Source: Candidatus Latescibacterota bacterium
GTDB lineage: Bacteria > Latescibacterota > UBA2968 > GCA-2709665
Length of the DNA: 64,000 bases
Reading direction: 5' to 3'
NCBI GenBank assembly: GCA_965219995.1
Contig: CBDCOX010000002.1
Span: 1,568,001-1,632,000, forward strand
Positions 3,928 to 64,000 of this stretch are shown piece by piece; position 1 is the stretch's first letter; each line of letters begins with the position of its first letter. The notes below the pieces were generated by a model that was given only the letters and a program-made list of their open reading frames with translations, searched no databases and had not been told where the DNA came from. A program made the translations under genes and the position numbers.

Positions 3928-3998
3928 CGATAACGGAAGCGGAGTTGTCTGCTGAACGGAAGCGCTTGATGCGCGCAGTCAGGGGTGTGCTGTTGCAA
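3928..3998 (-). repeat. attC-like site (degenerate)
   Basis: R'' TTGCAAC ... R' GTTATCG; GTGCTGTT end shared with other sites. Confidence 0.45.
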
Positions 3999-4067
3999 GC
4001 AGTCGGGTGGGACAATATACCTCAATCCACTCGTGGGACACCATTGCCATCTGTCATCGCCGCCCGA

Positions 4068-4775
4068 TCAGTCCTTGAAATCGTCCCGAACACAACGGAA
4101 TCCCAAATTGCCCGACCCACCCTTCAAGCGCACGCCTCCCCGTCTGGAACACCGCTTATGAAACGGGCTGGTATACCAGTCGCCACCCCGCGCCGACCGC
4201 GTTTCACCGCCCAGGGGTCCTACGGGACAGTACCTGCGGTCTTCTGTATACAGTCGCCGGTCATCTCTGCACCATTGCCACAGCGATCCAACCATGTCGT
4301 AGAGACCAAACCCGTTTGGTGGGTACGCGCCGACGTCGGGCGGGCCTTCGTCTCTCTCGCGATCTGCCGCCTGCGATCCATCAAATGCACCGTCACCCCA
4401 CGGATAAAGTGCATTGACCAGGCCTCCTCGGGCCGCCTTCTCCCATTCAGCCTCTGTGGGTAGCCTTTTTCCCGCCCAATCACAATATTCGAGCACATCC
4501 GGCAATGAAATACTCCTGACAGGCTGCAGAGGGGCATTCAGCCAGCTGTCCTGCCAGGTCTCCGGACGATAGTCTGCTGCCAGCATGAATCTATGATACC
4601 GATCTACGGAAACCAGGTGTACATCAATAGCGTATGCTTCCAGGTTGACGATATGTTGGGGCTTCTCGGCAAGGAAGGCTCCAGTGTAGCCCATATCATC
4701 GTCATTCACTGCGCCCATCAGGAATTCACCGGATGGTATCAGCACCATTTCCGAATCATCGTTCCGGGTGTACAT
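4068..4775 (-). CDS. FGE-sulfatase (SUMF1/EgtB-type) domain protein
   Basis: IPSGEFLMG, RLPTEAEWEKAARGG, NGFGLYDM.G, GFRC motifs. Confidence 0.9.
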   Translation of the reverse strand: MYTRNDDSEMVLIPSGEFLMGAVNDDDMGYTGAFLAEKPQHIVNLEAYAIDVHLVSVDRYHRFMLAADYRPETWQDSWLNAPLQPVRSISLPDVLEYCDWAGKRLPTEAEWEKAARGGLVNALYPWGDGAFDGSQAADRERDEGPPDVGAYPPNGFGLYDMVGSLWQWCRDDRRLYTEDRRYCPVGPLGGETRSARGGDWYTSPFHKRCSRRGGVRLKGGSGNLGFRCVRDDFKD

Positions 4776-5075
4776 ACGTGTTCCGCCGTCTGTATGCGTA
4801 CGTCTGCATCGTCAGGAAGAAGGGAGTCCTTTGGCTGTCTCAGTTCAGGCTCCGCCGCCCCCCCCAACGCACCTGAGCCAGTTTGCGTCGATGCGACTCT
4901 CACGGAGCGAACGAACAGGTCTGCCGACACATCGACGTCTATGAAGCAATACTCACTCGCCGACTCGGGGATCTACCGATGTGGTCTCGTCCTGTCTTTG
5001 CACATAGCCTGCGGATCACCGTCTCTGGCGGCAGAGCTACCGAAATCCAGACAGATGGGAAGTAGATGTATACCG

Positions 5076-5423
5076 TTAACCTCCGTTTTCATCCATTTCC
5101 TGCGATAGATCCACGAGCAACTGCAATTCTGTCACCGATCCTCGAGCCCACGTGTCTCGCTTGAACCGCTGGTGAAAGGCATCGATTTCATGTCTGGATC
5201 GCCCGGCGACCTCACGGGCGCGCTTCAGATCTTCGGATCGCATGTACGAAAGGAGATAATCTTCGCCACCCAATGTCAGCAGGAACCAGGACTCGACCTG
5301 CACTCCTTCATCGCGTAGTGTGTCCAACGCTTCGACCTTGCGCGCATTGATGGTGCTTGCCCATTTCGACACCCGGTCGCCGGAGTTTTTTTTAAGCTTG
5401 ATCAGGTTCGCTCTTACGTCCAT
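5076..5423 (-). CDS. DUF6176-like small protein
   Basis: EALDTLRDEGV..ESWF, H.IDAFHQRFK; stop lies within GGTTAAC. Confidence 0.7.
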   Translation of the reverse strand: MDVRANLIKLKKNSGDRVSKWASTINARKVEALDTLRDEGVQVESWFLLTLGGEDYLLSYMRSEDLKRAREVAGRSRHEIDAFHQRFKRDTWARGSVTELQLLVDLSQEMDENGG

Positions 5424-6879: not shown

Positions 6880-6973
6880 GGATAACGCGGTGACGGTTAA
6901 CGAACCGATGCGGATTTCCATAGGCCAAGGTGCCCGACGAATGGTGCAGCGCGGCACCGAACACCTGTTTGAC
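6880..6973 (-). repeat. attC-like site
   Basis: R'' GTCAAAC ... R' GTTATCC; family motifs GGCCAAGG and GCAGCGC (plus strand). Confidence 0.65.
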
Positions 6974-17588: not shown

Positions 17589-17682
17589 CTCGAACGTTAT
17601 CACCACCTGCGACCCCGTGCATGCGGGGTGCGCGCAAGCGCCAGGCACAGAATGTCGTGCAACGCAAATGGACGTGATATAT
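17589..17682 (-). repeat. attC-like site with non-canonical R'' (ATATATC)
   Basis: Aligns with 57248-57392 at both arms; R' GTTCGAG. Confidence 0.7.
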
Positions 17683-18664: not shown

Positions 18665-18750
18665 ATATATCGTCCTCGCAGGCTGCGAACCTGCGAAGCG
18701 GGTTGAGCGAAGGCGCGAATACGCAGGAGCCACAGCCCGTCGTGTTATAC
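18665..18750 (-). repeat. attC-like site with non-canonical R' (GATATAT)
   Basis: R'' GTATAAC; family GCGAACC arm. Confidence 0.75.
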
Positions 18751-20148: not shown

Positions 20149-20525
20149 GCCTATTCGATGTTGTGATTTGGAATTTCACATAACTACGGTATTACCAAAC
20201 AGTTACGGTAATTTGTATCTGGTCGGAGGATCTGCGAACGTTCGATTACGTTGGCACTTATAGCCGAAGATGTTGCGGATCCCGGATCTTCTGTCAACTG
20301 ACTCGACCACGTGATTGTGGGCCACTGTCCAGGTCGCTTAAGCGGTCGTAGCGTCCCGGCTGCGCGAGGGTTTCCCACGTTATTCCCCTGCCCTGAGACG
20401 ACCCAATTCGATCACGGTCGGCATCGTCACCTCCCCCTTGGGACCCAATCCCGCAACCGTCCGGAAATTTCTCAACGCCTGACGTGTGGCCTCGCTTAGT
20501 TCACTGTCCACCAGCCCGGTACGAT

Positions 20526-21026
20526 TCACGCCTCATCAGCGCAGTCGTCCTTCTTCTCGTGGCGTAATGTGCGTTCAAGTTCTGCCAGGAATCCGCTCTC
20601 ACTAATAAATCCTGAAAATCCTCCGTAGTCGCTCAAGTCTGAACAGGCTGTCAGAATCGAATTTGCCGCCATATCACTGGATATCTTCGCTTTAATCCCA
20701 TTCAAATAAGATTCAAGATCCGGACGGTCCTGCAAAGCGCCTAACGCTCTGGGCCTGATTCCGGCGATTTCACGTTCCACGTCAATTCGCCATCCCTTAT
20801 GCTTGAGAAATGACCGAAACGCGATTTCCTCGGCTTTTTCCAGATGACCATCGATATAGAGCGTCATCACCGCAGCTTCAAGAAAGGCCAATTGTTCATC
20901 TGTCGTAAGCTTTCGCGGATCGATAATTGAGCGCATTCTGGAACTGAAGAGCTTAAAGAGAGTGCCTACGAGGATTGGTGCAAGAATGAAAATAGCTATC
21001 ACTGCAATTGAGTCATCTGAGAACAT
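20526..21026 (-). CDS. membrane-anchored TerB-like protein
   Basis: N-terminal TM helix, IDG.L..AE motif. Confidence 0.55.
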   Translation of the reverse strand: MFSDDSIAVIAIFILAPILVGTLFKLFSSRMRSIIDPRKLTTDEQLAFLEAAVMTLYIDGHLEKAEEIAFRSFLKHKGWRIDVEREIAGIRPRALGALQDRPDLESYLNGIKAKISSDMAANSILTACSDLSDYGGFSGFISESGFLAELERTLRHEKKDDCADEA

Positions 21027-21058
21027 CGATCCCCCTGCAACAGGTGTTTGTCCTATTT

Positions 21059-21137
21059 GTCTGACGTTCGGCGAACATACCGACGGCAAGTCGGGTGAGG
21101 GATGGGACGGACCGAGCCGCAAGTGCTGCCGTCACCC
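21059..21137 (-). repeat. attC-like site
   Basis: R'' GGGTGAC ... R' GTCAGAC; resembles 54789-54879. Confidence 0.6.
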
Positions 21138-23979: not shown

Positions 23980-24080
23980 ATAAATCGTTCATCCGTTACC
24001 GAACCCCGGGAGCACAGCGAAGTGGGTTGCCGGAGGCCAAGCCGCCACCGGCCCCGCAGCGCAACACCGTGCTGTTAGAC
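23980..24080 (-). repeat. attC site (R'' GTCTAAC containing stop codon; R' GATTTAT)
   Basis: Family core GGTTGCCGGAGGCCAAG...GCAGCGCAACACCGTGCTGTTAGAC. Confidence 0.85.
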
Positions 24081-25523
24081 GGTGTCGCCCCCTGCATTCA
24101 GATGCTGATCAGCAAATCTTTGGTAGACATCAGAGTCCGGTTTGCTCGCGCTGTGGAGCCAATTCACTGATGTCGCCATCATATAGGGACGCCACATTGG
24201 ACTTACGATTCCGTAATTTTGGAATATCGCGACTGGGAACTTGTAGTCGTGTGCGTCAGGGTTGGCCTTTCTCTGGACAAGCTGACGCGATCTGCGCAAA
24301 AACGTGTCCAGGCCAAACGCCTTCTTGCCATATGTGAACGCCAACTTCTCCGCTTCTTCAATTCCAGACCTGTCCTCTATCTGTTGCCTCATCTCTCGAC
24401 TTGGGAGCAGCGAGAACACTTCCTCCGTCGCGTCCTCACTCGATTCAATGCCTTCCTTCGGGGCAAGGTCCGTAATCTTCCTGTCCCGCAAATTCCCGTG
24501 TTCGTGCTCAATGCCAATAAAGTTCGCGACCCATCCCACCGCTTGCAACAGAACGAAGAGCCGAGTCGTCTGACTCACAGTATCCTCGAACGCATAGTGC
24601 ATCGCGTTGGCTACGGTATTCGAATGCAATGGACGCGTGTTAATGCCTCCGGATCCTGCGTATCCCCCCTGTTTATGTCGGTGCATGAACTCACCAGCCG
24701 AAAGGAAAACTGCGTCCCAGACTGCTCCGGCAGGCACCCCAGAATCGACTATCTGACTGTACGCCATATCAGTGGCGCGATCCATCTCGCCAGCGCGAAT
24801 CTCCGAAAGCAACTCCAAAGTGGAGGTCTCATCGAAGCCTGCTCTCACCCAATCTGGCGCCAAACTCGAAGCCCTCGTGGCTCGTTCCATGTTCTCTCGG
24901 TATGGTTGCGAATCCAAGTCCCCAACGCGAGACATCAGATCCGATACGATGAATCGAAGGATTGGCTCAGAGTAGTGCCATCCCACGGTTTGGAGACTTC
25001 GCCAACAATTAGCGACAGCTATGATCTTGTGGCCGATGAAGCCCCATTCCTTCGCCCCATAGTGCCAGAGTTCCTCGATAATGTCACGCGGGCTCCACGA
25101 CCTACTCAGCCCAATCAGGGATCGCTCGGCTCGCCCTTGATCCCAGGAGTCCATCGCTTCTCTGAATTCCAGCAATGCTTTATCGCCCGTTGGGTATACG
25201 CCTTCCAGAGCGTCACGTGGCGGCTTTGCGTAATTCTCTTGAGCCCTCTTCAGGCTGTCGAGACCCCAAAAGACAGGGATGAGTCGATCTGCCCCAACTG
25301 AATCCAGGCTCATCTGATGAGCGGAATAAACCAGATACACTTCGTGATGCGTGCCTTCACAGGAACTGGCGGCAACCAGTAGGGCTGCAAGTGCCTGCCT
25401 GTACGTGAGCCCCTTTCTGAACTCGTCGGCAAGCATCTCAACCGCTCCTTCACGCGGCACATCTATCATTCGCTTGACAATGGGCTGAAGAGCCTCGCTC
25501 AGCTCTGTATGTCGTAGCGTCAT
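24075..25523 (-). CDS. hypothetical helical protein (482 aa), intact cassette
   Basis: GAGG RBS; His-rich motifs (GHK.I, LHSNT, HDYK); bounded by 16/17 complementary termini. Confidence 0.8.
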   Translation of the reverse strand: MTLRHTELSEALQPIVKRMIDVPREGAVEMLADEFRKGLTYRQALAALLVAASSCEGTHHEVYLVYSAHQMSLDSVGADRLIPVFWGLDSLKRAQENYAKPPRDALEGVYPTGDKALLEFREAMDSWDQGRAERSLIGLSRSWSPRDIIEELWHYGAKEWGFIGHKIIAVANCWRSLQTVGWHYSEPILRFIVSDLMSRVGDLDSQPYRENMERATRASSLAPDWVRAGFDETSTLELLSEIRAGEMDRATDMAYSQIVDSGVPAGAVWDAVFLSAGEFMHRHKQGGYAGSGGINTRPLHSNTVANAMHYAFEDTVSQTTRLFVLLQAVGWVANFIGIEHEHGNLRDRKITDLAPKEGIESSEDATEEVFSLLPSREMRQQIEDRSGIEEAEKLAFTYGKKAFGLDTFLRRSRQLVQRKANPDAHDYKFPVAIFQNYGIVSPMWRPYMMATSVNWLHSASKPDSDVYQRFADQHLNAGGDTV

Positions 25524-25553: not shown

Positions 25554-25645
25554 GTCTAACGTCTCGCCGGTTTGCGAACAGCGAAGGTGGTTGCCCAAGG
25601 CAAAGGCGATAGTAGCCGTCGCAGCGCAACACCGTGCTGTCAGCG
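25554..25645 (-). repeat. attC site
   Basis: R'' CGCTGAC ... R' GTTAGAC; family core. Confidence 0.85.
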
Positions 25646-25682: not shown

Positions 25683-26291
25683 CTATTCAGACAGAAACCG
25701 TTGCCAGCGATGACCCTCGGGATACAAGACTTCCAACCCGGCTCCCAACCATCTCTTTGCCTCGGCGGACATCAGCGGCAGGCAGGTCTGAAAGTCCAGG
25801 TCATCTTTCGAACGAGGATTCTTGGCTTTGTGCAGAAGCTGGACCTCAATCCGTATACAGGGAACACTCCCGTATGCAACGATCAAGTCGCCTCGCTGCC
25901 CGCCAATCAGTCTGCTGCGCTTGCTGAACCACCTGTCGCCTTCGCTTTCGGTCAACATGATCTGAAGCTGCCATACCTGTATGCCGGCATGGCCCCATAT
26001 GTCATGTATCCCGTAAGGCAAGTATTCTGATTCGGCCCATGGTCGCAATGAACCGGGCGGATCGGCCGCGTACAGATGCCAATCCGAGAGCCAGCGCTTT
26101 ACCTCGAGTTGTTGATCCCGGTACACGATGACGTCAATATCACCGTGGTCCCGTACACGGGTTCCCACGAACTGCTCTACCGCATGGCCGCCGGCGAGTC
26201 CCCACATGAAAGGAGCGTTGGCGAACAATTTCGTCAACTCCTTGACGGACAAGGGTTTCCATTGGCTGAAGGGAATCTCAGGAGTGGTCAT
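25683..26291 (-). CDS. nucleotidyltransferase (ANT(2'')/LinA-like fold)
   Basis: LAGG.A......R.HGDID, KD..DF motifs. Confidence 0.85.
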   Translation of the reverse strand: MTTPEIPFSQWKPLSVKELTKLFANAPFMWGLAGGHAVEQFVGTRVRDHGDIDVIVYRDQQLEVKRWLSDWHLYAADPPGSLRPWAESEYLPYGIHDIWGHAGIQVWQLQIMLTESEGDRWFSKRSRLIGGQRGDLIVAYGSVPCIRIEVQLLHKAKNPRSKDDLDFQTCLPLMSAEAKRWLGAGLEVLYPEGHRWQRFLSE

Positions 26292-28560: not shown

Positions 28561-28661
28561 GGCCTGCATTCCCGCCACTTGCTAACCCGCCCGGCTCTAT
28601 TGGCCGGGCTGCCCGCGGGACCAGGGCGAGAATGGGCCGCAGCGGCAACAAGCTGTTACAC
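28561..28661 (-). repeat. attC-like site (R' degenerate)
   Basis: GCCACTTGCTAACCCGCCCGG arm as in 57248; R'' GTGTAAC. Confidence 0.7.
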
Positions 28662-28696
28662 GATTATGATTCACAACCGACACCGGATGGTGCCAT

Positions 28697-29464: not shown

Positions 29465-29678
29465 ATTGCACGCTATCCGTGAACATCGAAGGCCAAATTA
29501 TCGTTCAGGCACTCGTTTTACGTGTTGTGCATTCCCGCAGCCGCGAATCGATTAGGCGAGGGGAATGCCCGAAGTAGAAAACGCTGCTGTTACGCCACGT
29601 GGAAAAATCGAAAACATAGCCCACTCCGGTGATTCGCTTTCTTGAGGTGGCGACTTTGTTGGCAGTGTTTCACATCAC

Positions 29679-38355: not shown

Positions 38356-39732
38356 CTACCTGCTGAACGCGTCGGGCCTGCTGGATTCCGAGGGCCAGTA
38401 CCCGTCGCGGCTCGGGTGCCAGCGCTTGCCGCACAGGTCGGAGATCACGCTCCATTCGGGGGCGCTCAGATCAGGGTCCGGCTGGAACAGGAAGCGCTGC
38501 AGGCCGGCCCGCTCGGAGGCGGTCAGGATGCCGTGCAGGTCGCGGGCGGTCATGGGCTCGCCCCCGTGCGGACGGCGCCCCGTCGATACCCAGGCGATCA
38601 CCTTGTTCACATCCCCGATGGCCTCCAGCGCTCGGCGCGTCTCGTTGTACACCAGCTCCGAGAAGAACTCCTCGGGGAACCCCAGTTCCATGTCCGCCAG
38701 GGTCTGCACCCCGGGAAGCTCCAGCCCCAGGAAGGCCTTGACCACGGCGAAGCCGTCTGCCTCCAACAGGGTCGGGTTCCAGTCCAGGACCTGCTGCACC
38801 CAGCGGGCCATGGTGCCGTAGAGGCCGTCATTCCCGCGGTGCCAGAAGTAGTGCTTGGGGAAGACGTAGTCGAAGTACTCCGCCATCTCGCCAAATTCGT
38901 GCCCGGTCAGTGACGAGAAAGCGGCGGTGCGCGGAATGCCCCCCAGCTCCACCTTCCCTCCCACTCTCTGCATCTGCGCGTGCACGGCGTGCATGAACCC
39001 CCGCGCCGCTTCGCGGCGGGCGCGCAGCCAGTACAGGGCATCCTCGTTCAGGTCGAACAGGTTCAGTGCCCCCAGCATGCCGCCGGACGCGTGGTAGCGC
39101 ACCAGATCCGGAGTCAGGTTGTGGAAACGCTCGTTCAGGTGCGCCATGCCGCGGGCGACGCGCTCCACATCGGCGCCGATGGCTTCCAGGCGGTGCCGCA
39201 TGCGACCGTCCAGTTCCAGTAGGGCCTGACCCCGATGGAAGGCAAGTTCGTAGAAGGTCTCACCGGGCTGGTCCAGGATGACGCCGTGGGCCTGGGGATA
39301 GGCACTGGCCAGGTCGTGCACCCCGGCGGCCACCTCGATGGCCCCGAAAGGGTCCTCCTCCTCGGCCAGGCCGCTGGTGGTACCCTGGCCCCGCTGGTAG
39401 AGCAGCCGGAGCCCGTCTCTGGAGTCGAAGATCATGATGTGCCAGCCCCGGGAGGCGGCGTTGTCGAGGAGCGCGTGGAGCTGCTTCTCCCTCTCGGGGG
39501 TGCGGGCCGTTTCCGGGGGCGGCTTGATGCCGAACGCGGCGTACACCTTTGGGTCCGCCGCAAACGAGGGGGTGAGGGTGTCCCCCCACAACGGCATGCC
39601 GGCCTCGTTCCTGAGCCACATCCGTCCCACCACGATGCCGCCCACCCCTCCCGCCTCCCACGCGTCGAAGATGCGCGGATAGTCGTCCAGCCAGCGCTCC
39701 AGGGGATTGTGCACGAAGATCCAGGGTACCAT
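38356..39732 (-). CDS. uncharacterised protein (458 aa), paralog of 45018-46331
   Basis: GC-rich; FPKHYFWHRG.DG.YGT and WVSTGRRPHGG motifs shared. Confidence 0.85.
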   Translation of the reverse strand: MVPWIFVHNPLERWLDDYPRIFDAWEAGGVGGIVVGRMWLRNEAGMPLWGDTLTPSFAADPKVYAAFGIKPPPETARTPEREKQLHALLDNAASRGWHIMIFDSRDGLRLLYQRGQGTTSGLAEEEDPFGAIEVAAGVHDLASAYPQAHGVILDQPGETFYELAFHRGQALLELDGRMRHRLEAIGADVERVARGMAHLNERFHNLTPDLVRYHASGGMLGALNLFDLNEDALYWLRARREAARGFMHAVHAQMQRVGGKVELGGIPRTAAFSSLTGHEFGEMAEYFDYVFPKHYFWHRGNDGLYGTMARWVQQVLDWNPTLLEADGFAVVKAFLGLELPGVQTLADMELGFPEEFFSELVYNETRRALEAIGDVNKVIAWVSTGRRPHGGEPMTARDLHGILTASERAGLQRFLFQPDPDLSAPEWSVISDLCGKRWHPSRDGYWPSESSRPDAFSR

Positions 39733-45017: not shown

Positions 45018-46331
45018 TCATATCCGGCCCTCTTCGGGTACCTCGCGCCCGCCGTCCCAGAAGCCTGGCTTGTCGGTCGCCGACGGCCAGTACCCGTCGG
45101 CGTCTTCATCCCATTGGTTTCCGCACATCGACGAGATGATGGTCCATTCCGCGGCCCCGAAATCCGGCTCGGGATGGTACAGGAAGCGCTTCAACCCCGC
45201 CTCGCGAGAAGCATTCAGGATGCCGTAGAGGTCGCGCGCCTGCATCGGGTCGCCCCCGTGGGGGCGGCGCCCGGTGGACACCCAGGCGATCACCTTGTCG
45301 GGATCACCTACGGCCGCCAGGGCCCGCCGGGTCTCGTTGTAGACCACCCTGGAGAAGAATTCGTCGGGGAAACCCATCTCCATGTCCATCAGCGAGTTGA
45401 CGCCGGGCAGTTCGATGCCCAACAGCGCCTTCACGACGGCGAAACACTCCGCCTCGCTCAGGGACGGATTCCACTTTCGCAACCGTCGTACCCAGCGGGA
45501 CATGGTTCCGTACATGCCGTCCATGCCGCGGTGCCAATAATAGTGCTTCGGAAAGATATAGTCGAAATACTCCGCCATCTGACTGTAATTCTGTCCGGTG
45601 AGCGATGACCATGCCGGGGCCCGCGGGATGCCGCCCAGCTCCACCTTGCGATCGACGGCGTCGACCTGTTGCCGCATGTACTGCCAGTCGAAGCGCGAGC
45701 GCTCCTGCCGCTTGCGCAGCCAGTAGAGCACGTCCTCGTTGACGTCGAACAGGAGCATTGCCCCCAGCATCCCCCCGTCGGCGTGGTACCGAACCATTTC
45801 CGGCGTCAGATTGTGCAGACGCTCCCGAAAGTGGGTGATGCCGCGCTGGATTCGATCCATCTCGGCGCCGACCTGGGCGAAGCGGGCCTCCTCGCCCGGA
45901 CGGATCTCCAGGAGCTCGCCCCCATGGTGGAACGCCAACTCGTAGTGATTTTCGCCCGGACCGTCGACAATGACGCCGTGCACCTGCGGAAAGGCGTTCA
46001 TCTGGTCCTGCACGTGTGCGGTCGGGCCGCCTCCGGCGAAGATCAGGATTCGCCAGCCCCGTTCCGCGGCGTTGTCCAGCATTGCGCGCAGCTTTTTCTC
46101 TTTTGAGACGTCGCGCGGACGCTGCTCCGGGACTTCCGCCCCCAGGGCCTCGTACACCTTCGGGTCGGGCGCCCAAGCGGGAATGGTCGTGCCATCCTCC
46201 TGGAGGAACGTCATGCGGCCGACGGCCAGACCGCGCACGCCGCCATCCTCCCAGGCGTCGAACCGCTCCTCGAACCCGTCGAGCCAGTGTTCGAACGGGC
46301 TGTCACTGCAGGTGAATACCCAGAGTTTCAT
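45018..46331 (-). CDS. uncharacterised protein (437 aa), paralog of 38356-39732
   Basis: Shared motifs; AAGGAGG RBS. Confidence 0.85.
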   Translation of the reverse strand: MKLWVFTCSDSPFEHWLDGFEERFDAWEDGGVRGLAVGRMTFLQEDGTTIPAWAPDPKVYEALGAEVPEQRPRDVSKEKKLRAMLDNAAERGWRILIFAGGGPTAHVQDQMNAFPQVHGVIVDGPGENHYELAFHHGGELLEIRPGEEARFAQVGAEMDRIQRGITHFRERLHNLTPEMVRYHADGGMLGAMLLFDVNEDVLYWLRKRQERSRFDWQYMRQQVDAVDRKVELGGIPRAPAWSSLTGQNYSQMAEYFDYIFPKHYYWHRGMDGMYGTMSRWVRRLRKWNPSLSEAECFAVVKALLGIELPGVNSLMDMEMGFPDEFFSRVVYNETRRALAAVGDPDKVIAWVSTGRRPHGGDPMQARDLYGILNASREAGLKRFLYHPEPDFGAAEWTIISSMCGNQWDEDADGYWPSATDKPGFWDGGREVPEEGRI

Positions 46332-46377
46332 TATTCCCTCCTTTGGGGTGGCAGGGACGATTCACGTTCACGTTCCC

Positions 46378-46420
46378 GCCGTGCGCAAAGAGAACAGTTC
46401 GTGTGGGAGGGCTTTCCATC
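46378..46420 (-). pseudogene. 5' fragment of sulfotransferase-like cassette
   Basis: Near-identical to 51362-51404 (ME.PPTRTVLFAHG). Confidence 0.8.
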
Positions 46421-46485
46421 TGAATCTCTGTCCACGATGGGAATCAATAGACCAATCACACTCCAAATACTCAGGCTGCGATTTC

Positions 46486-46579
46486 ATACGACGTTTCGCC
46501 GGTTTGCGAACACCAGACGAGGGATGCCCGAAGGGTCAAGGCGCGAACAGCTCCGCAGCGCAACACCGCACCGTTACAA
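46486..46579 (-). repeat. attC site
   Basis: R'' TTGTAAC ... R' GTCGTAT; arms match 25554-25645. Confidence 0.8.
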
Positions 46580-46599
46580 GATGACGAGAGAATTCCACC

Positions 46600-46628
46600 T
46601 TGACAAGCGTCACGTTACACCTTACACT
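46600..46628 (+). promoter_or_regulatory. sigma70 promoter of higBA (likely leaderless)
   Basis: TTGACA-17-TACACT; GTG start 6 nt downstream. Confidence 0.8.
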
Positions 46629-46634
46629 TTGTCG

Positions 46635-47079
46635 GTGATAAAAACATTCGCAGACAAGGAAACCCAACGCATTTACCGTACCGGCGAATCCAGGAGGTTG
46701 CCCGTTGACCTGGTGCGAAGAGCAATCCGCCGCCTAGATTACATCGACCTCGCCAACACGTTGAATGATCTGAGAGTTCCATCTGGTGTCCTGTCCCAAA
46801 AATACCTCACCATTCTTCCTCAGATTCATCCCGTCTCGCAGCGTTGCCATCGCTCGCCGACCGTGCCAGGTCGCCTGCGCTCCGGCGCCTTGCGAGCCGG
46901 GCGACTCTGCGGCCGAATTTTGGCAACTTATTTCCGGGACAGAACACTGCAACCGCCTGCACCAGTTGAAGAAGGACCGTAAGGGACAACACGCCATCGC
47001 CATCAACGAACAATGGCGCATCTGTTTTCGGTTTGTCGACGGGGACGCTTACGACGTAGAAATCACGGACTATCAATGA
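46635..47079 (+). pseudogene. higB: HigB toxin interrupted by a MITE
   Basis: MIKTFADKET...LRVPS | NRLHQLK.DR.GQHAI.IN.QWRICFRF. Confidence 0.9.
46786..46947. mobile_element. 162-bp MITE
   Basis: 19-bp TIRs GTGTCCTGTCCCAAAAATA / TATTTCCGGGACAGAACAC (16/19); removing 46786-46948 restores the higB frame. Confidence 0.85.
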
Positions 47080-47091
47080 AAGGAACATCCC

Positions 47092-47406
47092 ATGGCCATC
47101 ACAAATACACAGAAACGCGCCATCCCGCCAACTCATCCTGGTGAGATGCTGCGTGAGGATTTCTTGCCGGACTACGCGCAAACAGTGACTTCCCTGGCGG
47201 AGGCATTGGGTGTATCCCGTCAAACGATAAATGAGCTTCTGCGGGAGCGGCGCGCCATCTCGCCCCTCATGGCATTGAGACTTGCCCGCTTGTTTGGAAA
47301 CGCTCCAGAATTTTGGATGAAGGCCCAACACAAACGAGATCTTTGGGAATCAGAACAGCGACATCAAGGCGAGCTGGCTGACATCGAACCGCTCGCTGTT
47401 CCGTAG
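47092..47406 (+). CDS. higA: HigA antitoxin
   Basis: PTHPGEMLREDFL, ALRLARLFG..PEFW..AQ. Confidence 0.92.
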   Translation: MAITNTQKRAIPPTHPGEMLREDFLPDYAQTVTSLAEALGVSRQTINELLRERRAISPLMALRLARLFGNAPEFWMKAQHKRDLWESEQRHQGELADIEPLAVP

Positions 47407-47435
47407 ACGACGATCCCCTGCCCAAACCCTTCCCT

Positions 47436-47503
47436 GCCCCCGAACCGCGTCGCGGTTGCGCGAAGGGGTTTCTTGCCCCGAAGCCGGGGGCACGGTGTTA
47501 GAG
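47436..47503 (-). repeat. attC site lacking R'
   Basis: R'' CTCTAAC; aligns with 49067-49148 except for the R' end. Confidence 0.75.
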
Positions 47504-48199: not shown

Positions 48200-48266
48200 C
48201 TCTAACGTTCAGCCGGTTGCAGCGGAGACAACCTAAACGACCGGAGTCGCATCCCGCGTGTTAGCC
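48200..48266 (-). repeat. attC site (67 bp)
   Basis: R'' GGCTAAC ... R' GTTAGAG. Confidence 0.85.
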
Positions 48267-49066: not shown

Positions 49067-49148
49067 GGCTGACGTCGCGCCCCCGAACCCCGGAGCGGTT
49101 GGGCGAAGGGGCTCTTGCCCGGATGCCGGGGGCAGGGGCGTGGTATGT
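49067..49148 (-). repeat. attC site
   Basis: R'' ACATACC (mutated) ... R' GTCAGCC; GCCCCCG/CGGGGGC arms. Confidence 0.75.
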
Positions 49149-53570: not shown

Positions 53571-53880
53571 CATCTCCGCTACACAAAAACGCGCCATCCC
53601 GCCAACTCATCCTGGTGAGATGCTGCGTGAGGATTTCTTGCCGGATTACGCGCAAACAGTGACTTCCCTGGCGGAGGCATTGGGTGTATCCCGTCAAACG
53701 ATAAATGAGCTTCTGCGGGAGCGGCGCGCCATCTCGCCCATCATGGCATTGAGACTTGCCCGCTTTTTTGGTAACTCTCCGGAATTCTGGATGAAGGCCC
53801 AACACAAACGAGATCTTTGGGAATCAGAGCAGCGACATCAAGGCGAGCTGGCGGACATCGAACCGCTCGCTATTCCGTAG
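53571..53880 (+). pseudogene. higA: second higA copy lacking start codon, promoter and higB
   Basis: Near-identical to 47097-47406, including downstream flank. Confidence 0.85.
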
Positions 53881-53917: not shown

Positions 53918-54012
53918 TTGTAACGTTTTTCGGTTGCCGAACCCCGAGCTTGTCGAGGGGTTGCCAAAGGCCAAGGCGCGAACGCGCCGCAGCGTAAGAC
54001 GTACTGTTTAAC
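53918..54012 (-). repeat. attC site
   Basis: R'' GTTAAAC ... R' GTTACAA; family core. Confidence 0.85.
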
Positions 54013-54035: not shown

Positions 54036-55844
54036 CTACCAAGATTTCCGCTTTTTTTCAATAGCATTAACGTATTCTTCTGCTTTTTCACACAATGCAA
54101 GAAACGCATCTACAGTATCAATGCGTGAGGTGCGCACAGCGAAGGCGTGATGCACAATATGATCTCCAACATGACCCAAAGATTGGGTCAATTTCTTATA
54201 AGATGGATCGAATGGAAGACCATATTCAGCTTCTACTTCCACAAACGCAAGATGAAGGATCATCTTTGCAAATCCTGGTGCCCTCAATTTACCTATACCA
54301 TTCATTCTTCTTATGCTATGAATACTTCTCTGAATTTGTTCAATCAGATGCCGTGCCTCCTCGCTTAGTGACCAACGTTCTACTTTAAGAGTTGTCAGAT
54401 CGATATGCTGCCCCCATACTCGTCTAAAAAATGGAAACTGTTTCACCCAAAGCGGTAAAGGTATGAATTGATCTCTTTCCATATCACCGGCCAACTCGGA
54501 TAGTGTAATACGTGCTAATGAAGCTTTTATACCTGTTTGACTGGTGAATTCTGTTCGAAGATAGGCATCCACATCTGCTGCTTCTCTGCCATCAAAATCA
54601 TCCTTGACCACCGATAGGAGATCAACATCGCTTGAAGGGAGTTCGTCTTGAGTGCCAAATGAACCACATAGGTATAGCGAAATCAAGCCTTTGTCTTTTA
54701 GTCTGGCAACCACTTCGGCGACAGAGCGATCCAATACGGTATCTGTCATCTGCTTCCGTTCGCTGTGAGGTTGATAATAACGGATTTCAGTTAACGTTCC
54801 TGGCGTGGTGCGAACCTGGCGGCGCCAGGTTGGGTCGGAGGGAGCGGAAGCGACCGGAGCCGCACACGCCGTGTTATAGGCTGTGCCCGGCCGACCTGAA
54901 CAGAGGCGTTTACTATTGGCCGAGCGTCTGGTACCCAGATCTTTGACGTAGGCGAGTGAAGTATCGCGGGTTATATAGCCCTCCGCCAGGTAAAGTGACA
55001 CGGCTGCATGATTCTTCTCCCGACAATTCAATACAGCCGATTTGTACCCCTCACACCGCATTTCGTGAAGTGCGCGCCGCAGGAGATGCCTGCCGATTCC
55101 CTTCCGGCGATAGTTCTCCTTCACGCCTATCCAACGCGTATAACTGAGCCACTCCAACGAATCCTGATCCGCGTAGGTGCGTCCGGATTGGGAACGACAG
55201 CTTCCTATGGCCTGGCCGTCGATTGTGCCCTTAACCCAGGTGTTGGGGAGGGCGCCGACGCCGTCTGACCCTTCGATTATGATCTCGACGCCTGGATGCG
55301 GATTGGGAAGGGAAGCAGAATCCAATGATCGTTGCATCGTCAGGTGCCCATCGTGAGCCCTGTACCCGGTCTCCTTAAGCAGCGACGAAACGTGAGTCAT
55401 ATGAGACGAGAGGATGCCGACCTTATGGTTGTGGAAGGGGTATCCGTGGTACAGTGGAAAGGCGTCTACGCGTGTGAGACCCTCCGATTGGAAGATCTGT
55501 TCCGCGTAGCTGAGGAGTGCCTGACCAACTTCCCTTCGACGAGGTGAAAATGCAAGAAAGCGGATGATCCCGCATTCGATTTCCTCACCGTCGACCTCGA
55601 CGTCGCTACCGACACAAAGATGTGCGAATCCGACCGGTCCCGTAGCGTCTGACGCAACGAGCAGCTTTTGTGACTGAGCCGAGGCACAGGACTCGTCGTC
55701 GGATTCCACAGGGATGATTCCGGCCGCGAATTCCGCTGGCTCAACGGGATACGCGAACGGCGCGCTGGCTGTTGCATCCGCCCATACGGCTTGCAGCCGG
55801 GCTGCCTCGTCCATATCCCAATGCTTGATTGATACGGTCCTCAT
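54036..55844 (-). CDS. tandem GNAT reading through attC into a Pol-beta-type nucleotidyltransferase (internal ATG 54749)
   Basis: RRREVGQAL and YRRKGIG; LCGSFG...SDVD; attC inside ORF; GC drops in 3' half. Confidence 0.8.
   Translation of the reverse strand: MRTVSIKHWDMDEAARLQAVWADATASAPFAYPVEPAEFAAGIIPVESDDESCASAQSQKLLVASDATGPVGFAHLCVGSDVEVDGEEIECGIIRFLAFSPRRREVGQALLSYAEQIFQSEGLTRVDAFPLYHGYPFHNHKVGILSSHMTHVSSLLKETGYRAHDGHLTMQRSLDSASLPNPHPGVEIIIEGSDGVGALPNTWVKGTIDGQAIGSCRSQSGRTYADQDSLEWLSYTRWIGVKENYRRKGIGRHLLRRALHEMRCEGYKSAVLNCREKNHAAVSLYLAEGYITRDTSLAYVKDLGTRRSANSKRLCSGRPGTAYNTACAAPVASAPSDPTWRRQVRTTPGTLTEIRYYQPHSERKQMTDTVLDRSVAEVVARLKDKGLISLYLCGSFGTQDELPSSDVDLLSVVKDDFDGREAADVDAYLRTEFTSQTGIKASLARITLSELAGDMERDQFIPLPLWVKQFPFFRRVWGQHIDLTTLKVERWSLSEEARHLIEQIQRSIHSIRRMNGIGKLRAPGFAKMILHLAFVEVEAEYGLPFDPSYKKLTQSLGHVGDHIVHHAFAVRTSRIDTVDAFLALCEKAEEYVNAIEKKRKSW
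54789..54879 (-). repeat. attC site (inside fused ORF)
   Basis: R'' CTATAAC ... R' GTTAACT; AACCTGGC/GCCAGGTT hairpin. Confidence 0.85.
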
Positions 55845-57247: not shown

Positions 57248-57392
57248 CTATAACGTTCTCGCCACTTGCGAACCCGCCCGGCTTCATGGGTGGGTTGCCG
57301 TCAGGCCAAGGAACCCTTCGACATTTCGACAGGCTCAATGCAAGCAAGCTCAGATTAAATTCCGCGACGCTGCGCAAGTGGATGTGTTATGC
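57248..57392 (-). repeat. attC site (145 bp) with nested REP-like insert
   Basis: R'' GCATAAC ... R' GTTATAG; close copy at 63018-63162. Confidence 0.85.
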
Positions 57393-58106: not shown

Positions 58107-58191
58107 ACATAACGGCCCGGCTGATCCTGAATCGCGCAGCTGTTTTCTGCTCCGTCAAACGCAGCGGGGCCTACGTCGCACGACGTAAGCC
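58107..58191 (-). repeat. degenerate attC-like site
   Basis: R' GTTATGT matches the NUDIX cassette R''; its own R'' GGCTTAC is degenerate. Confidence 0.5.
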
Positions 58192-60160: not shown

Positions 60161-60244
60161 GTGTAACGTTTGGCTGTTGACAACCCCCGGAGCGCAGCGA
60201 AGGGGATTGCCGAAGGCCAGGGAGCGCAAGTGGACGTGTCAGTG
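60161..60244 (-). repeat. attC site
   Basis: R'' CACTGAC (contains stop codon) ... R' GTTACAC; family core. Confidence 0.8.
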
Positions 60245-60760
60245 GCCTGTGCGGTCGCTGGCAGGGTTAAATCCCTGGACACCGATCTCATCGTGTAGAA
60301 TCCGATCAACGATGCAGCCAAGTTGCTGCACTTTCGCAAATTCCGCAGAGAGTTTCTCAATCAGGTCATCGTCGCCGAAGCGAACGTCTCGACTGAAGAC
60401 CTTCATCGTACTGTTCGACACCTTGTATCCCTTCCATGTCTCAATCATACCGCGTGCTTTTTTCACGAACGGCCGGCTGAAAGCAGCGCGCTTCAATCGA
60501 GTTCCCGGGAATGTGTCTTGATGAAGCACGTGCATGACAAGACGTGTCTTCTTCTGTTGCATTTCACGGTCAGTAATCCAGGTCTCGAAATGGATACCCA
60601 TTCCGTCTTGATTGAACCATAGGTCCCTGAACAGTTGAAGCCCTGATCCACCACTCTCGGGAAACATGTCCAGTCGCGTTTCCCACCCATCCGAAAACCA
60701 GTCTGCCGTACGCAAATTACCGTCCAGCTTCTCCATCAAGGACGAATATTCACTCCCCAT
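60239..60760 (-). CDS. hypothetical protein
   Basis: 173 aa, W.N..G.GIHFETW; overlaps upstream gene stop. Confidence 0.75.
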   Translation of the reverse strand: MGSEYSSLMEKLDGNLRTADWFSDGWETRLDMFPESGGSGLQLFRDLWFNQDGMGIHFETWITDREMQQKKTRLVMHVLHQDTFPGTRLKRAAFSRPFVKKARGMIETWKGYKVSNSTMKVFSRDVRFGDDDLIEKLSAEFAKVQQLGCIVDRILHDEIGVQGFNPASDRTGH

Positions 60761-61868: not shown

Positions 61869-61969
61869 CGATCTGACTCCTAACAGCCCGTTGAAAAAGT
61901 CCATCCGGGCTACGTCCGGCCCTTGTGACCGAATACCGGCGTTGCGCTCCCTCCCGGAACTACATGGAT

Positions 61970-62929
61970 CTACCCCGGAAACTCAGTCCTCAACAGCGGT
62001 TGAACACGATACCTCCATTGGCTCTCAATCAAGGAATGGTCTGGAGACTTTGCGGCTGCTTCCAGGATATTCGCAGCTGCTCGACTGGCCATGAGGGTAG
62101 GTATGTACTCTTCCAGATCCATGCTGAGTGAACGAACTTCACGATACCCCTTCAATAACGCATCAGACCTCTCCTGGAAACCGGGACGACCGTAGGGGCC
62201 GGCCAGGATCACAGCGATTTCATACAGGTAGTAGCCGAATCCGCAGTCGCCGAAATCAATTGCGATGGCGTGACCCGGTCGAAAGAGGACATTTCCGAAA
62301 CTGAGGTCTGCGTGAATGAGGCCGAACATCTCTGTGTCGCAGCCCATCTGTTGTTCCGCTTCTGTCAGCCGACCATAGACCGTTTCCAGATCGCGGCGAA
62401 CAGGAGCCGGTCCGATCTCATCTAAAGGAAACTTCGAACGGGAACCAAAAAGCCCCTCAGCGTCATACGTGGGGCGGTCAAAACCCGTGGGCGGCGACCA
62501 CGCTTCAGAGTGATTGTGCAACTCACCCGCAACGCGGCCAAGCAATTCGAAGTGCCGAGGCGACCGGTGGTCCTGATCCAGGATACGTCCGTTGAGCCAG
62601 GATGTAACGGATACCGGGAATGGTCCGGGTACGCCTGGAACATCTGCCACGATAACTCTTTTGCCGTCAGGCGATCTATAGGGCTGTGGAACGGAGAGCG
62701 TGGTATCGTGGCAGAGAGCCTCCAGCCAATCCAATTCCGATTCAATGATCCGGGGCGCCTTCCTGTCACGGTGAATCCGCACTCGATACTCGCCTGAATC
62801 GCAGGTCCACTTCGACTTGCGACAACGGCATTCTCCCAAACCCAGTTCGCGGAGCGCGGCCTTTGCCACCCTGTGTAACCGACGGATCCGTCCCTGGTGA
62901 GTTAGTTCTTCGAAGCTCCGTATGGCCAT
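61970..62929 (-). CDS. phosphotransferase (type II homoserine kinase/SrkA-like)
   Basis: GLIHADL..GN, IDFGD. Confidence 0.85.
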   Translation of the reverse strand: MAIRSFEELTHQGRIRRLHRVAKAALRELGLGECRCRKSKWTCDSGEYRVRIHRDRKAPRIIESELDWLEALCHDTTLSVPQPYRSPDGKRVIVADVPGVPGPFPVSVTSWLNGRILDQDHRSPRHFELLGRVAGELHNHSEAWSPPTGFDRPTYDAEGLFGSRSKFPLDEIGPAPVRRDLETVYGRLTEAEQQMGCDTEMFGLIHADLSFGNVLFRPGHAIAIDFGDCGFGYYLYEIAVILAGPYGRPGFQERSDALLKGYREVRSLSMDLEEYIPTLMASRAAANILEAAAKSPDHSLIESQWRYRVQPLLRTEFPG

Positions 62930-63017
62930 TCCGACCTCCACAAAAGCACCGTCACCGTCGGTGGAGTACCGGCTCTCTCTTGTGCCGCAGGACCCGGTGT
63001 CCTGTCCCAGCAATGCC

Positions 63018-63162
63018 GCCTTACGTTCTTGCCACTTGCGAACCCGCCCAGCTCTATGGGCGGGTTGCCGTCAGGCCAAGGAGCCCTTCGACATTTCGAC
63101 AGGCTCAATACAAGCAAGCTCAGGACAAACTCCGCGACGCAGCGCAAGTGGACGTGAAAAAT
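63018..63162 (-). repeat. attC-like site with nested REP-like insert (cores degenerate)
   Basis: Near copy of 57248-57392. Confidence 0.75.
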
Positions 63163-63259
63163 GCTGGCAGCGGCCCTCTCTTCGCGAAGCACCTTTGGGG
63201 CGGAGTTCATGCGCACACCAAAACCTCGGTTTGTGTCATGTGAATCCTATGGCGGCCTT

Positions 63260-64000
63260 TTAGCGTCCGTCAGGACGTTGTGGAGAGCATCCTTCCTCTG
63301 TCGCTGCCTGAATGCAACCGAGATTATCGTAGACCCACCAGGCGCATTCGAACGTCTCCTCAGCGTTGTCCCGCGGACCATACTCCTGGAAGTGATCGAC
63401 CAGCGTTAACAAGAAGAACGGAATTCCCAGGGAAAAGGCGGTTTCCTCTTCTGACCTGATTTCGGTGGCGCTGCCGTAGCCTTCAAGAAGGCGAGGAAGG
63501 TGGTGGAGCCATGGACGTGTTCGCCCATGGCTGCAGTCCCGAGCAACCAGGTTGGCCGCGAAATTCGCAAGATCGCAGATGCGTGGCCCGACACTGATAT
63601 GGTCACAGTCAACAAAACCGCTAACTTGACCGTTATGGAGTAGCGTGTTGCCTAAGTGGCAATCCCAAAGCACGGGCTGCTGGACAAGTCGAGGCGAAAT
63701 GTCCGCGATTGGGTCTTCCAGACCCGAAAGAATGACTTCCAGTCGGTCACGGCTCCTGCCGGTCATCCGCTCACGCATGCGCGGGACGCTAACCTCAAAC
63801 AGGCGCGAATAGAGTTCGGTCTTCCACGTATCAATCTGGCCATCATACATCGCAAGGACCTGATGCAGGTTGGCGTAAACTCGGCCAATGTTGTAGTAGA
63901 TCGGCCCCGCGTCATCGGCGTACAGGTCCGTACTTTCGCGCTCTATGCGAGGCAAAAGGATGAATGCATTTGATCCGTCGGATGCATGAAATCCACCACT
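63260..64000 (-). CDS. phosphotransferase, probably 5'-truncated by window edge
   Basis: WDCHLGN, FVDCD. Confidence 0.7.
   Translation of the reverse strand, partial: SGGFHASDGSNAFILLPRIERESTDLYADDAGPIYYNIGRVYANLHQVLAMYDGQIDTWKTELYSRLFEVSVPRMRERMTGRSRDRLEVILSGLEDPIADISPRLVQQPVLWDCHLGNTLLHNGQVSGFVDCDHISVGPRICDLANFAANLVARDCSHGRTRPWLHHLPRLLEGYGSATEIRSEEETAFSLGIPFFLLTLVDHFQEYGPRDNAEETFECAWWVYDNLGCIQAATEEGCSPQRPDGR

Follow-up and report, generated by a model that had tools for sequence, protein, structure and literature searches.

What defines an integron is its integrase, which can recombine folded single-stranded sites by means of an extra domain, and this IntI-specific (I2) domain is thought to be necessary for recombining folded single-stranded attC sites. 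Because the definition runs through the extra domain, surveys discard domain-less recombinases that adjoin attC sites and file their arrays as orphan CALINs, which comprise at least two attC sites that have no integron integrase nearby. Cury et al. (2016) judged attC-adjacent recombinases without the IntI-specific region not to be IntI. The phylum list in PMC8618304 omits Latescibacterota, and a full-text literature search for Latescibacter together with integron returned no paper that was on the subject, judged by title.

We analyzed a stretch of 64,000 nucleotides (hereafter the window) on contig CBDCOX010000002.1 (C2) of a Candidatus Latescibacterota bacterium, which an earlier note had read as a large integron cassette array. 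We consider it highly probable that positions 3928-64000 of the window belong to a gene cassette array of the integron type, ~87 kb long, on this chromosome and make up its distal two-thirds.

Extent and gene content of the array

The whole array covers C2:~1,571,900-1,658,576, with its right end outside the window at window coordinate ~90,576, and its genes in 3928-64000 are read on the minus strand. A cassette would consist of one or a few minus-strand genes with a site 67-145 nt long after them. Greedy ORF calling in 3928-64000 gave 76 frames of 60 aa or more; 41 of them matched Pfam at E<=1e-3, and 39 of the 41 are on the minus strand. The remaining two, on the plus strand at 46287-47403, are a HigB-like/HTH pair, annotated as an inverted toxin-antitoxin-like pair at 46641-47403; the HigB-like domain scores 23.9 bits, short of its Pfam cut-off (27), and the HTH_3 protein 35.3 bits. 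The Pfam families are mutually unrelated, with five APH, four NUDIX and two ANT(2'')-like ORFs found alongside GNAT, HAD, cupin, beta-lactamase fold and methyltransferase families, and GC per kb spans 0.463-0.663 across the window. The earlier description of this DNA as holding nearly all of its genes on the minus strand, unrelated in function and variable in GC, is borne out by these results. An IS insertion at 36262-37813 on the minus strand, with a DDE_Tnp_1_4 transposase at 36278-37657, is missing from the related genomes G010 and G013.

A clustered, one-way family of attC-like sites

Sites were detected with R2, a covariance model of the repeat that was built from arrays of relatives found with a first model, R1, made from 6 seeds; R1 was overly sequence-specific inside the window, yet it located the relatives' arrays. 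With filters off, R2 gave 22 window matches at E<=1, the best 16 of which (E<=0.031) are all on the plus strand, the inferred bottom strand. These attC-like sites begin with 6880-6973 (15.0 bits, E 0.031; nhmmer E 1.2e-8), 17589-17682 (19.9 bits, E 5.8e-4) and 18665-18750 (42.3 bits), followed by 23980-24080 (57.1 bits), whose R'' contains the stop codon of gene 24075-25523(-), and by 25554-25645 (71.7 bits), which has an extra C in L'' (CGCAAcACCG). The sites at 34628-34719 (58.4 bits) and 46486-46579 (59.3 bits) precede one at 47421-47503 (47.8 bits) that belongs to a subfamily with the L box TGCCCCCG/CGGGGGCA, a short site at 48200-48266 (15.1 bits, E 0.029), a site with degenerate cores at 49067-49146 (18.6 bits, E 0.0017) and a site at 53918-54012 (68.1 bits). 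The site at 54789-54879 (36.4 bits) lies within a 602-aa open frame, 54036-55844, which is probably two cassettes, GNAT and NTP-transferase. A long site of 145 nt at 57248-57392 (50.3 bits) shares 90% identity (repeat family D8) with the last site, 63018-63160 (49.3 bits), in which the R boxes have decayed; between them lie 58107-58181 (16.4 bits, E 0.0099) and 60161-60244 (25.0 bits), the latter containing the stop codon of gene 60239-60760(-).

About 6-8 further degenerate sites were found by eye or with nhmmer, for example at 29515-29595, 32246-32330, ~33900, ~19130 and ~3930, and at 28566-28665 on the plus strand, where the R'/L' arm has diverged (nhmmer E 2.3e-14 as seed; absent from the R2 list at E<=1). 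The count of about 25 palindromes originally proposed is therefore an upper estimate, made up of 16 model-supported sites plus the degenerate ones, while the proposed palindrome consensus string agrees with the one computed here. The earlier note names stop codons in R'' among the marks of integron cassettes; here the upstream gene's stop codon is inside the site in 2/16 cases (24075 and 60239) and within 60 nt in 10/16. Model-supported sites occur about once per 4 kb here versus once per 0.8 kb in the related genome G073, and the roughly 21 model-supported sites for ~90 genes in the array amount to far fewer than one per gene, which counts against the cassette reading.

Hairpins of the REP/BIME or terminator type, accumulated between genes in a variable island that grew by homologous recombination and accretion, could also give rise to repeated palindromes, and the location of the hairpins just 3' of genes fits such an origin. 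Repeats of that kind would be scattered over the genome in either orientation. Instead, all 16 R2 matches at E<=1 in the 5.44-Mb genome fall within C2:1,585,589-1,655,161, a 70-kb stretch, and all are on the plus strand. Iterated nhmmer on a 120-kb region likewise gave 17 matches, all on the plus strand, and the arrays of three genomes gave 47 matches, every one on the same strand. Scans that used structure alone do give similar-scoring AAC...GTT hairpins across the region. A strict scan for AAC..GTT with a 7-bp L-stem produced 96 matches per strand genome-wide that were not concentrated in the array and recovered one real site only, and two further scans, one by constrained MFE and one by dynamic programming of arm pairing, each produced >100 matches over 100-120 kb. 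These matches occur within the array and beyond it alike, so structure by itself does not set the sites apart. With one mismatch allowed, the bare 9-mer GCAGCGCAA was not enriched in the window (23 seen versus 20.35 expected), a result that counts against the observation, and Rfam 15 at gathering thresholds gave 0 matches there.

On the plus strand, R' (nnnTAAC) comes first and is set apart from L' by a spacer of 6-7 nt; a branched middle part with two hairpins leads to L'', and R'' (GTTAnnn) follows after a further spacer of 3-4 nt. The inverse R''/R' cores of attC (RYYYAAC, GTTRRRY) are found at both ends, with the 5' AAC present in 31/47 and the 3' GTT in 38/47 aligned sites on the plus strand, a level of core decay that counts against the attC reading. 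Within the R helix, pairs 5-7 form in 38-43 of the 45 distinct sites, and the two L-box helices, which correspond to L''/L' of attC, are 82.9-88.0% paired and show compensatory change at all 9 of their pairs. Across the 45 distinct sites, 86.3% of cells pair versus 71.9% after shuffling, and 163 cells versus 54.2 show double-sided changes, values that were reached in 0/500 shuffles; the alignment behind these counts had been fitted to the structure of the model itself and so leans towards it. Sliding the partners by 1-3 columns, as a control, left 32-47% of cells paired. The unpaired spacers expected of attC are 6-7 nt long on the 5' side and 3-4 nt long on the 3' side, each in 43/47 sites, and this asymmetry appears larger than in classical attC sites.

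An extra base is located in L'' in 25/47 sites, plus one site with four, compared with L' in 2/47 and none in 21/47. Its identity varies between C, G and A, where classical attC has a conserved G, and a second extrahelical base was not identified in the 47 sites. A G directly follows AAC in 43/47 sites. In attC, the extrahelical bases are on the R''-L'' arm, a G follows AAC, and R' of the bottom strand is cut between C and A (PMC2727003). When single sites were folded as DNA, only 2/8 beat z = -2 (-0.48, +1.17, -0.99, -2.15, -2.66, -0.71, -0.87 and -1.16, with the fourth and fifth values belonging to the sites at 47421 and 54789), a modest stability that counts against attC sites and in favor of ordinary hairpins, while the minimum-energy folds retain L-box pairing in 7/8. 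GC skew indicates that the plus strand is the leading-strand template, as for the bottom strands of 25/30 sedentary integrons (PMC5371416). The covarying R and L boxes, the unpaired spacer, an extra base on the arm that gene orientation predicts, and breakpoints at R' (see below) support the view that these sites behave as attC-type, a status assigned by R2, a model made in the present analysis, and not by IntegronFinder's model. AAC/GTT cores, spacer asymmetry and a one-sided extra base are also foreign to terminators.

Comparison with relatives located breakpoints of homology. Blocks of homology to G010 or G013 have 123 ends, 10 of which fall within 3 nt of AA|C in the R' of 20 sites, versus a random mean of 0.18 and a maximum of 3 in 2000 trials. 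In the window, blocks begin at 17593, 46490 and 58111 and stop at 18673, 34635 and 49072, each inside one of the sites given above. Exchange at AA|C of R' is what is expected of attC, whereas the 110/123 block ends that are not near any recognized site count against it. Some cassettes are 97-99.4% identical to G013 versus 81.5% in the flanking core, cassette order differs between genomes, and relatives carry mosaic, reshuffled versions of the array. Breakpoints that coincide with the R' core at single-nucleotide precision, and a site family that trails a recombinase gene in many genomes, largely refute intergenic hairpins in an accreting island as the explanation, and we regard it as very improbable.

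The site family is present in 71/132 genomes of the class Latescibacterota, its arrays reaching 13 sites in 10.6 kb, and a MAG labelled Gemmatimonadota (L057) also carries the sites. These data support a family that is specific to this class, in keeping with the lineage-specific attC family of the earlier note, whose tests by clustering and by cassette order likewise turned out in its favor.

The array head and its recombinase in relatives

The head of the array is at window coordinate ~90,550, 26.5 kb past the window, beside conserved PG-binding and PolB genes. An attI-like element is found here, with a 7-bp inverted repeat around an 8-nt gap (ATTACCG-N8-CGGTAAT, top-strand reading). It has exactly 3 copies in the genome, all within the array, one of which is internal to the window (core AAC|TACGGTATTACC.AACAGTTACGG, 20182-20208, plus strand). 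At loci L043 and L044 and in G013, the element follows the stop codon of a recombinase gene, and homology among copies stops at GTAG|TT. The element may serve as the insertion point for cassettes.

No integron integrase was found in the whole genome with TIGR02249, whose best score was 92 bits versus a cut-off of 265, and no intI pseudogene was recognizable by this family. PF00589 identified only two Xer-like genes in the whole genome, at 2.16 and 3.16 Mb, far from the array. A weak R1 match beside an Xer-like gene at C2:2,159,712 (E 1.3) did not recur with R2 and was dropped. The array thus lacks the adjoining intI with an IntI-specific region that marks a complete integron, and since there is no integron integrase in the genome, it is of the CALIN type. 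Of the two labels offered earlier, super-integron or CALIN, the second applies; attI and intI had been predicted to the right of 64000, and the head and attI-like element are indeed there, but the recombinase gene is absent. A 12-codon 3' piece of it persists at window coordinates 83,293-83,331, and no match to the P0002 family, to which the head recombinase of relatives belongs, was found in this genome at E<=1e-35.

In G013, G012 and at L043/L044, a tyrosine recombinase has the array on one side and the syntenic PG-binding/PolB genes on the other; within this genus its direction is that of the cassettes. Among solved structures it is closest to VchIntIA (2a3v), at 152-158 bits versus 109-127 for archaeal Xer chains, and the same IntI ranked first in Foldseek with 33% identity. 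The C-terminal SPLD tail is common to both. This recombinase is not a canonical IntI, since it lacks the IntI-specific insertion and scores under the TIGR02249 cut-off: near patch III, 18-27 residues take the place of the 60-69 of IntI4, so that ~41-42 residues are missing, while canonical IntI of the same class keep the ~41-residue insertion in the same alignment, and it reached 213-224 bits with TIGR02249 (cut-off 265) and 212-223 bits with NF040815 (XerA/integron integrase). Its forms include proteins of 376 aa and 293 aa, the long form having an extra ~95-residue N-terminal domain (strand-strand-helix-strand-strand-helix) that is absent from IntI. A 14-sequence tree split off only the two host Xer-like proteins and did not separate the branching of canonical IntI and the insertion-less family, so we draw no ancestry from it.

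The insertion-less recombinase could instead be an unrelated passenger, such as a mobile-element integrase that targets this locus, next to an array that was built by a canonical IntI later lost from the genus. With 7800 relatives in various phyla at E<=1e-20 and identities of 55-73% between phyla, the recombinase family is spread so widely as to suggest the enzyme of a mobile element, the head gene is often broken or fragmentary within the genus, and Cury et al. (2016) reached such a conclusion for similar cases. Canonical IntI above the TIGR02249 cut-off was found in 0/14 same-genus genomes and in 6/61 related genomes, of which G017 and G060 also have sites. However, the other 4 IntI-positive genomes have no sites, no R2 site was found within ~20 kb of the canonical intI of G060 and G054 (74 kb in total), and the region beside the canonical intI of G017 gave no match to the site HMM and contains an IS. 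In contrast, sites adjoin the insertion-less recombinase in 13 genomes, and 10 of 20 further recombinase loci have sites downstream of the 3' end in one fixed relative orientation, with no sites found at the other 10. The attI-like junction also ends in GTT, like the R' core. We therefore consider an unrelated passenger unlikely. Against the recombinase as the enzyme of the sites, co-occurrence over the class is loose, as the recombinase is present in 30/132 genomes and sites are found in 22/30 positive versus 49/102 negative genomes. Nine loci of distant homologues in other phyla contained neither R2 sites nor clear repeat arrays, so we make no claim beyond Latescibacterota.

We conclude that the locus is, in all likelihood, a real integron-type cassette array that has lost its enzyme in this genome. 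As in integrons, the folded bottom strand, here the plus strand, would be the recombination substrate, folding as a single strand in vivo, with exchange at AA|C of R'. Cassettes would be excised, reinserted at the attI-like site at the array head and reshuffled, and the genomic association points to the head recombinase as the candidate cognate enzyme of the sites. Deletion probably removed its gene in this genome, leaving the attI-like element and the 12-codon remnant. With the recombinase gene gone, the array would now be a reservoir of the CALIN type, either frozen or in slow decay.

The chances are about even that these arrays represent a class-wide Latescibacterota integron lineage using an IntI relative that lacks the I2 domain, either as a pre-I2 "proto-integron" or through a compensated secondary loss, with the array in the window as a member that lost the enzyme; the additional N-terminal domain seen in the long form might provide such compensation. 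If the domain-less enzyme is the catalyst, integron-type cassette capture would not need the I2 domain, the puzzling abundance of CALINs would be accounted for in part, and the step from Xer-type to integron-type recombination would become testable with a natural enzyme-substrate pair. Even conservatively, a poorly known phylum is added to the hosts of large sedentary cassette arrays.

Comparison with integrons, CALINs and Xer systems

The array resembles the Vibrio cholerae superintegron and its VCR attC sites in being a long one-way array of promoter-poor, unrelated cassettes, and in its relatively homogeneous, lineage-specific site family with R''/L''/L'/R' boxes, a spacer and a branched end, to which many sites add a one-sided extra base that may correspond to the extrahelical base(s). 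Like sedentary integrons, it shows exchange at the R' core, an inverted toxin-antitoxin cassette and bottom strands on the leading-strand template. It differs from them in having no intI, with the candidate enzyme of relatives lacking the IntI-specific insertion, in the spacer excess on the R'-L' side (6-7 versus 3-4 nt), in an extra base that varies and is missing in 21/47 sites, in the sparseness of model-supported sites here, and, within this genus, in a recombinase that is co-oriented with the cassettes and followed, after its stop codon, by the attI-like element.

Taking the sites as attC-type, the locus has the composition of a CALIN, but it is much larger than the average CALIN, for which Cury et al. 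(2016) give 5 sites, and its history can be read in relatives, where the head recombinase that was apparently deleted here is retained.

The head recombinase itself is like IntI (VchIntIA; TIGR02249) in its best match, SPLD tail and position at the array head, and it groups with the canonical IntI found in this class, apart from the two Xer-like genes of the host, but it differs in the missing insertion, the lower family score and the N-terminal domain of the long form. With Xer/XerA acting on dif-type sites it shares size and an insertion-less domain layout, and the attI-like inverted repeat resembles a simple core site. Unlike Xer/XerA, it is not part of the housekeeping pair, since two other Xer-like genes are kept, and it occurs in 30 of the 132 genomes, tied to arrays of folded sites.

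Number, polarity and anatomy of the repeated sites

The palindromes that the earlier note described between the genes of this stretch proved to be real, with a consensus of six copies (nTCTAACGTTTCGCCGGTTTGCGAACCCC...GGGGTTGCCGAAGGCCAAGGCGCC...GGCGCCGCAGCGCAACACCGCGCnGTTAGAn) agreeing with the string it gave. A covariance model built from six copies (R1) recruited 41 copies from the array of the window's genome (G000; 5.44 Mb in two contigs, the window being C2:1,568,001-1,632,000) and the arrays of two relatives, and these 41 copies were used to build a second model (R2). With filters off, R2 gave 22 matches in the window at E<=1, the best 16 of which (E<=0.031) lay on the + strand only. Since another 6-8 degenerate copies were found by nhmmer or by eye, the earlier figure of about 25 holds as an upper estimate for the window but not as a firm count, for which 16 sites are solid. 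Further R2 sites lie to the right of the window at window coordinates 70,824, 79,880, 81,952 and 87,022, with weaker ones at 78,365 and 87,908. Genome-wide, all 16 R2 matches at E<=1 fell inside C2:1,585,589-1,655,161 on the + strand, in a scan that scored 150 of 3523 candidates after a first-look filter, while sequence profiles alone recovered 17 copies in 120 kb, every one on the + strand. The other contig of G000 (C1, 9,612 bases) contained no R2 sites and no PF00589 matches.

Read on the + strand, a site begins with R' (nnnTAAC), a spacer starting with G and L' (9 nt), continues through a hairpin (AACC...GGTT), GCCnnnGGCCAAGG, a second hairpin and GCAG, and ends with L'' (9-10 nt), a second spacer and R'' (GTTAnnn). 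The 5' spacer measured 6-7 nt and the 3' spacer 3-4 nt, each in 43 of 47 sites. In the 45 distinct sites, which come from three genomes, paired cells made up 86.3% compared to 71.9% after shuffling, and 163 cells were changed on both sides compared to 54.2; these values were reached in none of 500 shuffles, in an alignment that was fitted to the model itself and so favours the modelled structure. Pairing dropped to 32-47% of cells when partners were slid by 1-3 columns, and compensatory change was present at all nine L-box pairs.

According to Bouvier et al. 2009 (PMC2727003), classical attC sites carry extrahelical bases on the R''-L'' arm, usually have a G after the AAC of R', are cleaved between C and A in the bottom-strand R', and can have a branched terminal structure. 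Because the cassette genes are on the minus strand, the + strand would be the bottom strand of our sites, which places their extra base on the arm expected from classical attC: L'' carried one unpaired base in 25 of 47 sites and four in a further site, but L' had one in just 2 of 47. In naked-DNA folds, L pairing was kept in seven of eight minimum-energy folds, yet z<-2 was obtained for just two of the eight sites, and structure-only scans did not distinguish the sites from background. The unremarkable stability of these sites as naked DNA and the outcome of the scans both count against the attC reading.

Cassette content and exchange among relatives

The array spans window coordinates ~3,930 to 90,576, and the genes on its right flank encode a PG-binding protein, a family-B DNA polymerase and cytochrome oxidase. 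Its genes had been described as almost uniformly minus-strand, functionally unrelated and variable in GC, and this was borne out: between 3928 and 64000, 39 of 41 Pfam-supported ORFs are on the minus strand, GC ranges from 0.463 to 0.663 per kb, and the Pfam families are mutually unrelated (5 APH, 4 NUDIX, 2 ANT(2'')-like, GNAT, HAD, cupin, beta-lactamase and metallo-beta-lactamase folds, and methyltransferases). The + strand exception is a HigB-like/HTH pair.

The array also contains duplicated cassettes or cassette parts with 73-95% identity (47097-47396 and 53571-53870; 25770-26069 and 34076-34375; 38419-38718 and 45111-45410), one of which includes a second copy of the HTH antitoxin-like gene. 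A 602-aa open frame (54036-55844) spans an attC-like site (54789-54879) between its GNAT and NTP-transferase domains; it probably joins two cassettes in a single reading frame, or is possibly a genuine fusion. An insertion sequence encoding a DDE_Tnp_1_4 transposase (36,262-37,813) sits in a CTAAC sequence and has what looks like a short target duplication; this insertion is private to G000, and the same cassette occurs without it in two same-genus genomes, G010 and G013.

Of 14 other same-genus genomes, 12 had R1 matches to this site family, mostly confined to one region and one strand per genome. In blastn comparisons with the arrays of G010 and G013, the G000 array was mosaic: blocks the size of cassettes occurred in a shuffled order, and some had been gained or lost. 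Several blocks were 97-99.4% identical to G013, compared to 81.5% for the right flank. When block ends were compared with 20 model-supported sites, 10 of 123 distinct ends lay <=3 nt from the AA|C of R', against a random mean of 0.18 and a maximum of 3 in 2000 trials, and 13 of the 20 sites had a block end within 15 nt. The breakpoints at R' AA|C coincide with the integron crossover point.

The recombinase and attI-like element at the array head

The earlier note saw no integrase, and the search of the whole G000 genome agreed: no integron integrase was detected with TIGR02249 (cut-off 265 bits), whose best matches were two Xer-like genes at 2.16 and 3.16 Mb, reaching 92 bits at most. None of the 14 same-genus genomes exceeded the cut-off either. 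Two relatives, G013 and G012, carry a gene for a tyrosine recombinase in the interval that separates the array from the syntenic PG-binding and PolB genes; in G000 this interval amounts to only 500 bp. This head recombinase is intact (376 aa) in one fetched locus (L043), lacks ~95 N-terminal residues in G013 and G012, and has an internal deletion in G008; C-terminal fragments of it are present within several arrays.

The best-scoring profiles for the head recombinase were NF040815 (XerA/integron integrase; 212-223 bits) and TIGR02249 (213-224 bits in two stretches, against the cut-off of 265), compared to 175-194 bits for XerC and XerD. Its best solved relative was VchIntIA (2a3v; 152-158 bits), with archaeal Xer chains (XerA 5hxy and Xer-like 4a8e) scoring 109-127 bits, and 2a3v also ranked first against the structure that AlphaFold predicted for the 376-aa form (pLDDT 82.3). 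Where IntI4 has 60-69 residues, the head recombinase has 18-27. In one alignment, the four canonical IntI of the class carry the ~41-residue insertion, which is missing from the head recombinases and host Xer proteins. The predicted structure also has a small, confident N-terminal strand-strand-helix-strand-strand-helix domain, at residues 10-70 of the long form (P0002). This domain bears the motif IPGRRW..KCW..P, belongs to no Pfam family and was covered by full-length lambda integrase in a fold search.

Beyond the stop codon of the recombinase, a stretch of approximately 150 nt is conserved among L043, a second fetched locus (L044), G013 and three places in G000. Read on the top strand, this attI-like stretch ends ...ATTACCGTAACTGTTCGGTAATcCCGTAG|TT, beyond which the copies diverge. 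Its core occurs in exactly three copies in G000, on the + strand at window coordinates 20,182, 83,163 and 90,550, and the copy at 83,163 retains the last 12 recombinase codons (83,293-83,331). The copy at 90,550 would be the array's attI, and the recombinase gene next to it has presumably been deleted. Immediately right of the internal copy at 20,182, a 198-aa minus-strand ORF (20526-21122) shares 55% identity at its N-terminus with the unusual 60-residue segment that precedes the truncated recombinase of G013 as an N-terminal fusion, a placement that hints at an old rearrangement at an array head.

Class-wide distribution, mechanism and comparison with known integrons

Of 132 genomes of the class, 71 (in 19 of 31 genera) had R2 sites, and 30, G000 not among them, had a member of the recombinase family at E<=1e-35 to P0002. 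Sites occurred in 22 of 30 recombinase-positive and 49 of 102 recombinase-negative genomes, which are kin rather than independent samples. Sites adjoin the recombinase gene in G013, G012, G044, G008, G073, G074, G069, G016, G072, G057, G070, G066 and G020. In G073, a run of 13 sites in 10.6 kb stops ~700 bp from the gene, and in G069 a 293-aa recombinase is divergent from the first cassette, as in a classical integron. Among 20 further loci fetched regardless of sites (one of which, L080, probably repeats L043), 10 had sites at E<=0.001, always 3' of the gene and in one relative orientation; none were found in the other 10, several of which are short contigs. The 74 kb surrounding the canonical intI genes of G060 and G054 contained no R2 sites.

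G020 has six near-identical short head recombinase copies (C1:1448646, 2071955, 3850038, 4651470, 4843419 and 5171585), five with sites beside them, which suggests that the whole platform is able to move or multiply. In G017, a canonical intI is directly followed by an insertion-less recombinase family gene (C1:2493564-2495721); the recombinase gene recurs three times, and copies of it lie near 2159579 and 5718976. This arrangement may be a composite mobile unit. L057, a record labelled Gemmatimonadota, holds six matches to the site family and a recombinase fragment, explained either by transfer from one phylum to another or by a fault in binning or labelling.

The array is most likely an integron-type platform. 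The bottom strand of a site would fold and recombine at AA|C through an IntI-like recombinase, with recombination between two sites excising a cassette and recombination with an attI-like site inserting one at the array head. In G000, the enzyme would have been lost and the array would persist as a CALIN. Of this picture, the data show the site structure, its polarity and clustering, the breakpoints and the associations, from which folding in vivo, the catalyst and the attI function are inferred.

Cury et al. 2016 found only 21 attC-adjacent recombinases that lack the IntI-specific region where the replicon has no IntI elsewhere. Four of the 21 fell between IntI and Xer, each of them beside <3 sites, and such attC-adjacent recombinases were concluded not to be IntI. 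On that account, class-wide arrays that carry tens of sites and have at their head an IntI-like enzyme lacking the IntI-specific domain are new. We found no published description of such headed arrays in titles and abstracts, and the supplements of integron surveys may list them as CALINs.

Compared with known systems, the array falls outside the definition of a complete integron and within that of a CALIN, and its sites have most of the features that define attC. GC skew places the terminus near 0.92 Mb and the origin near 3.94 Mb, which makes the + strand the template for leading-strand synthesis. The array thereby shares its orientation relative to replication with 25 of 30 sedentary integrons (PMC5371416), an arrangement thought to limit folding.
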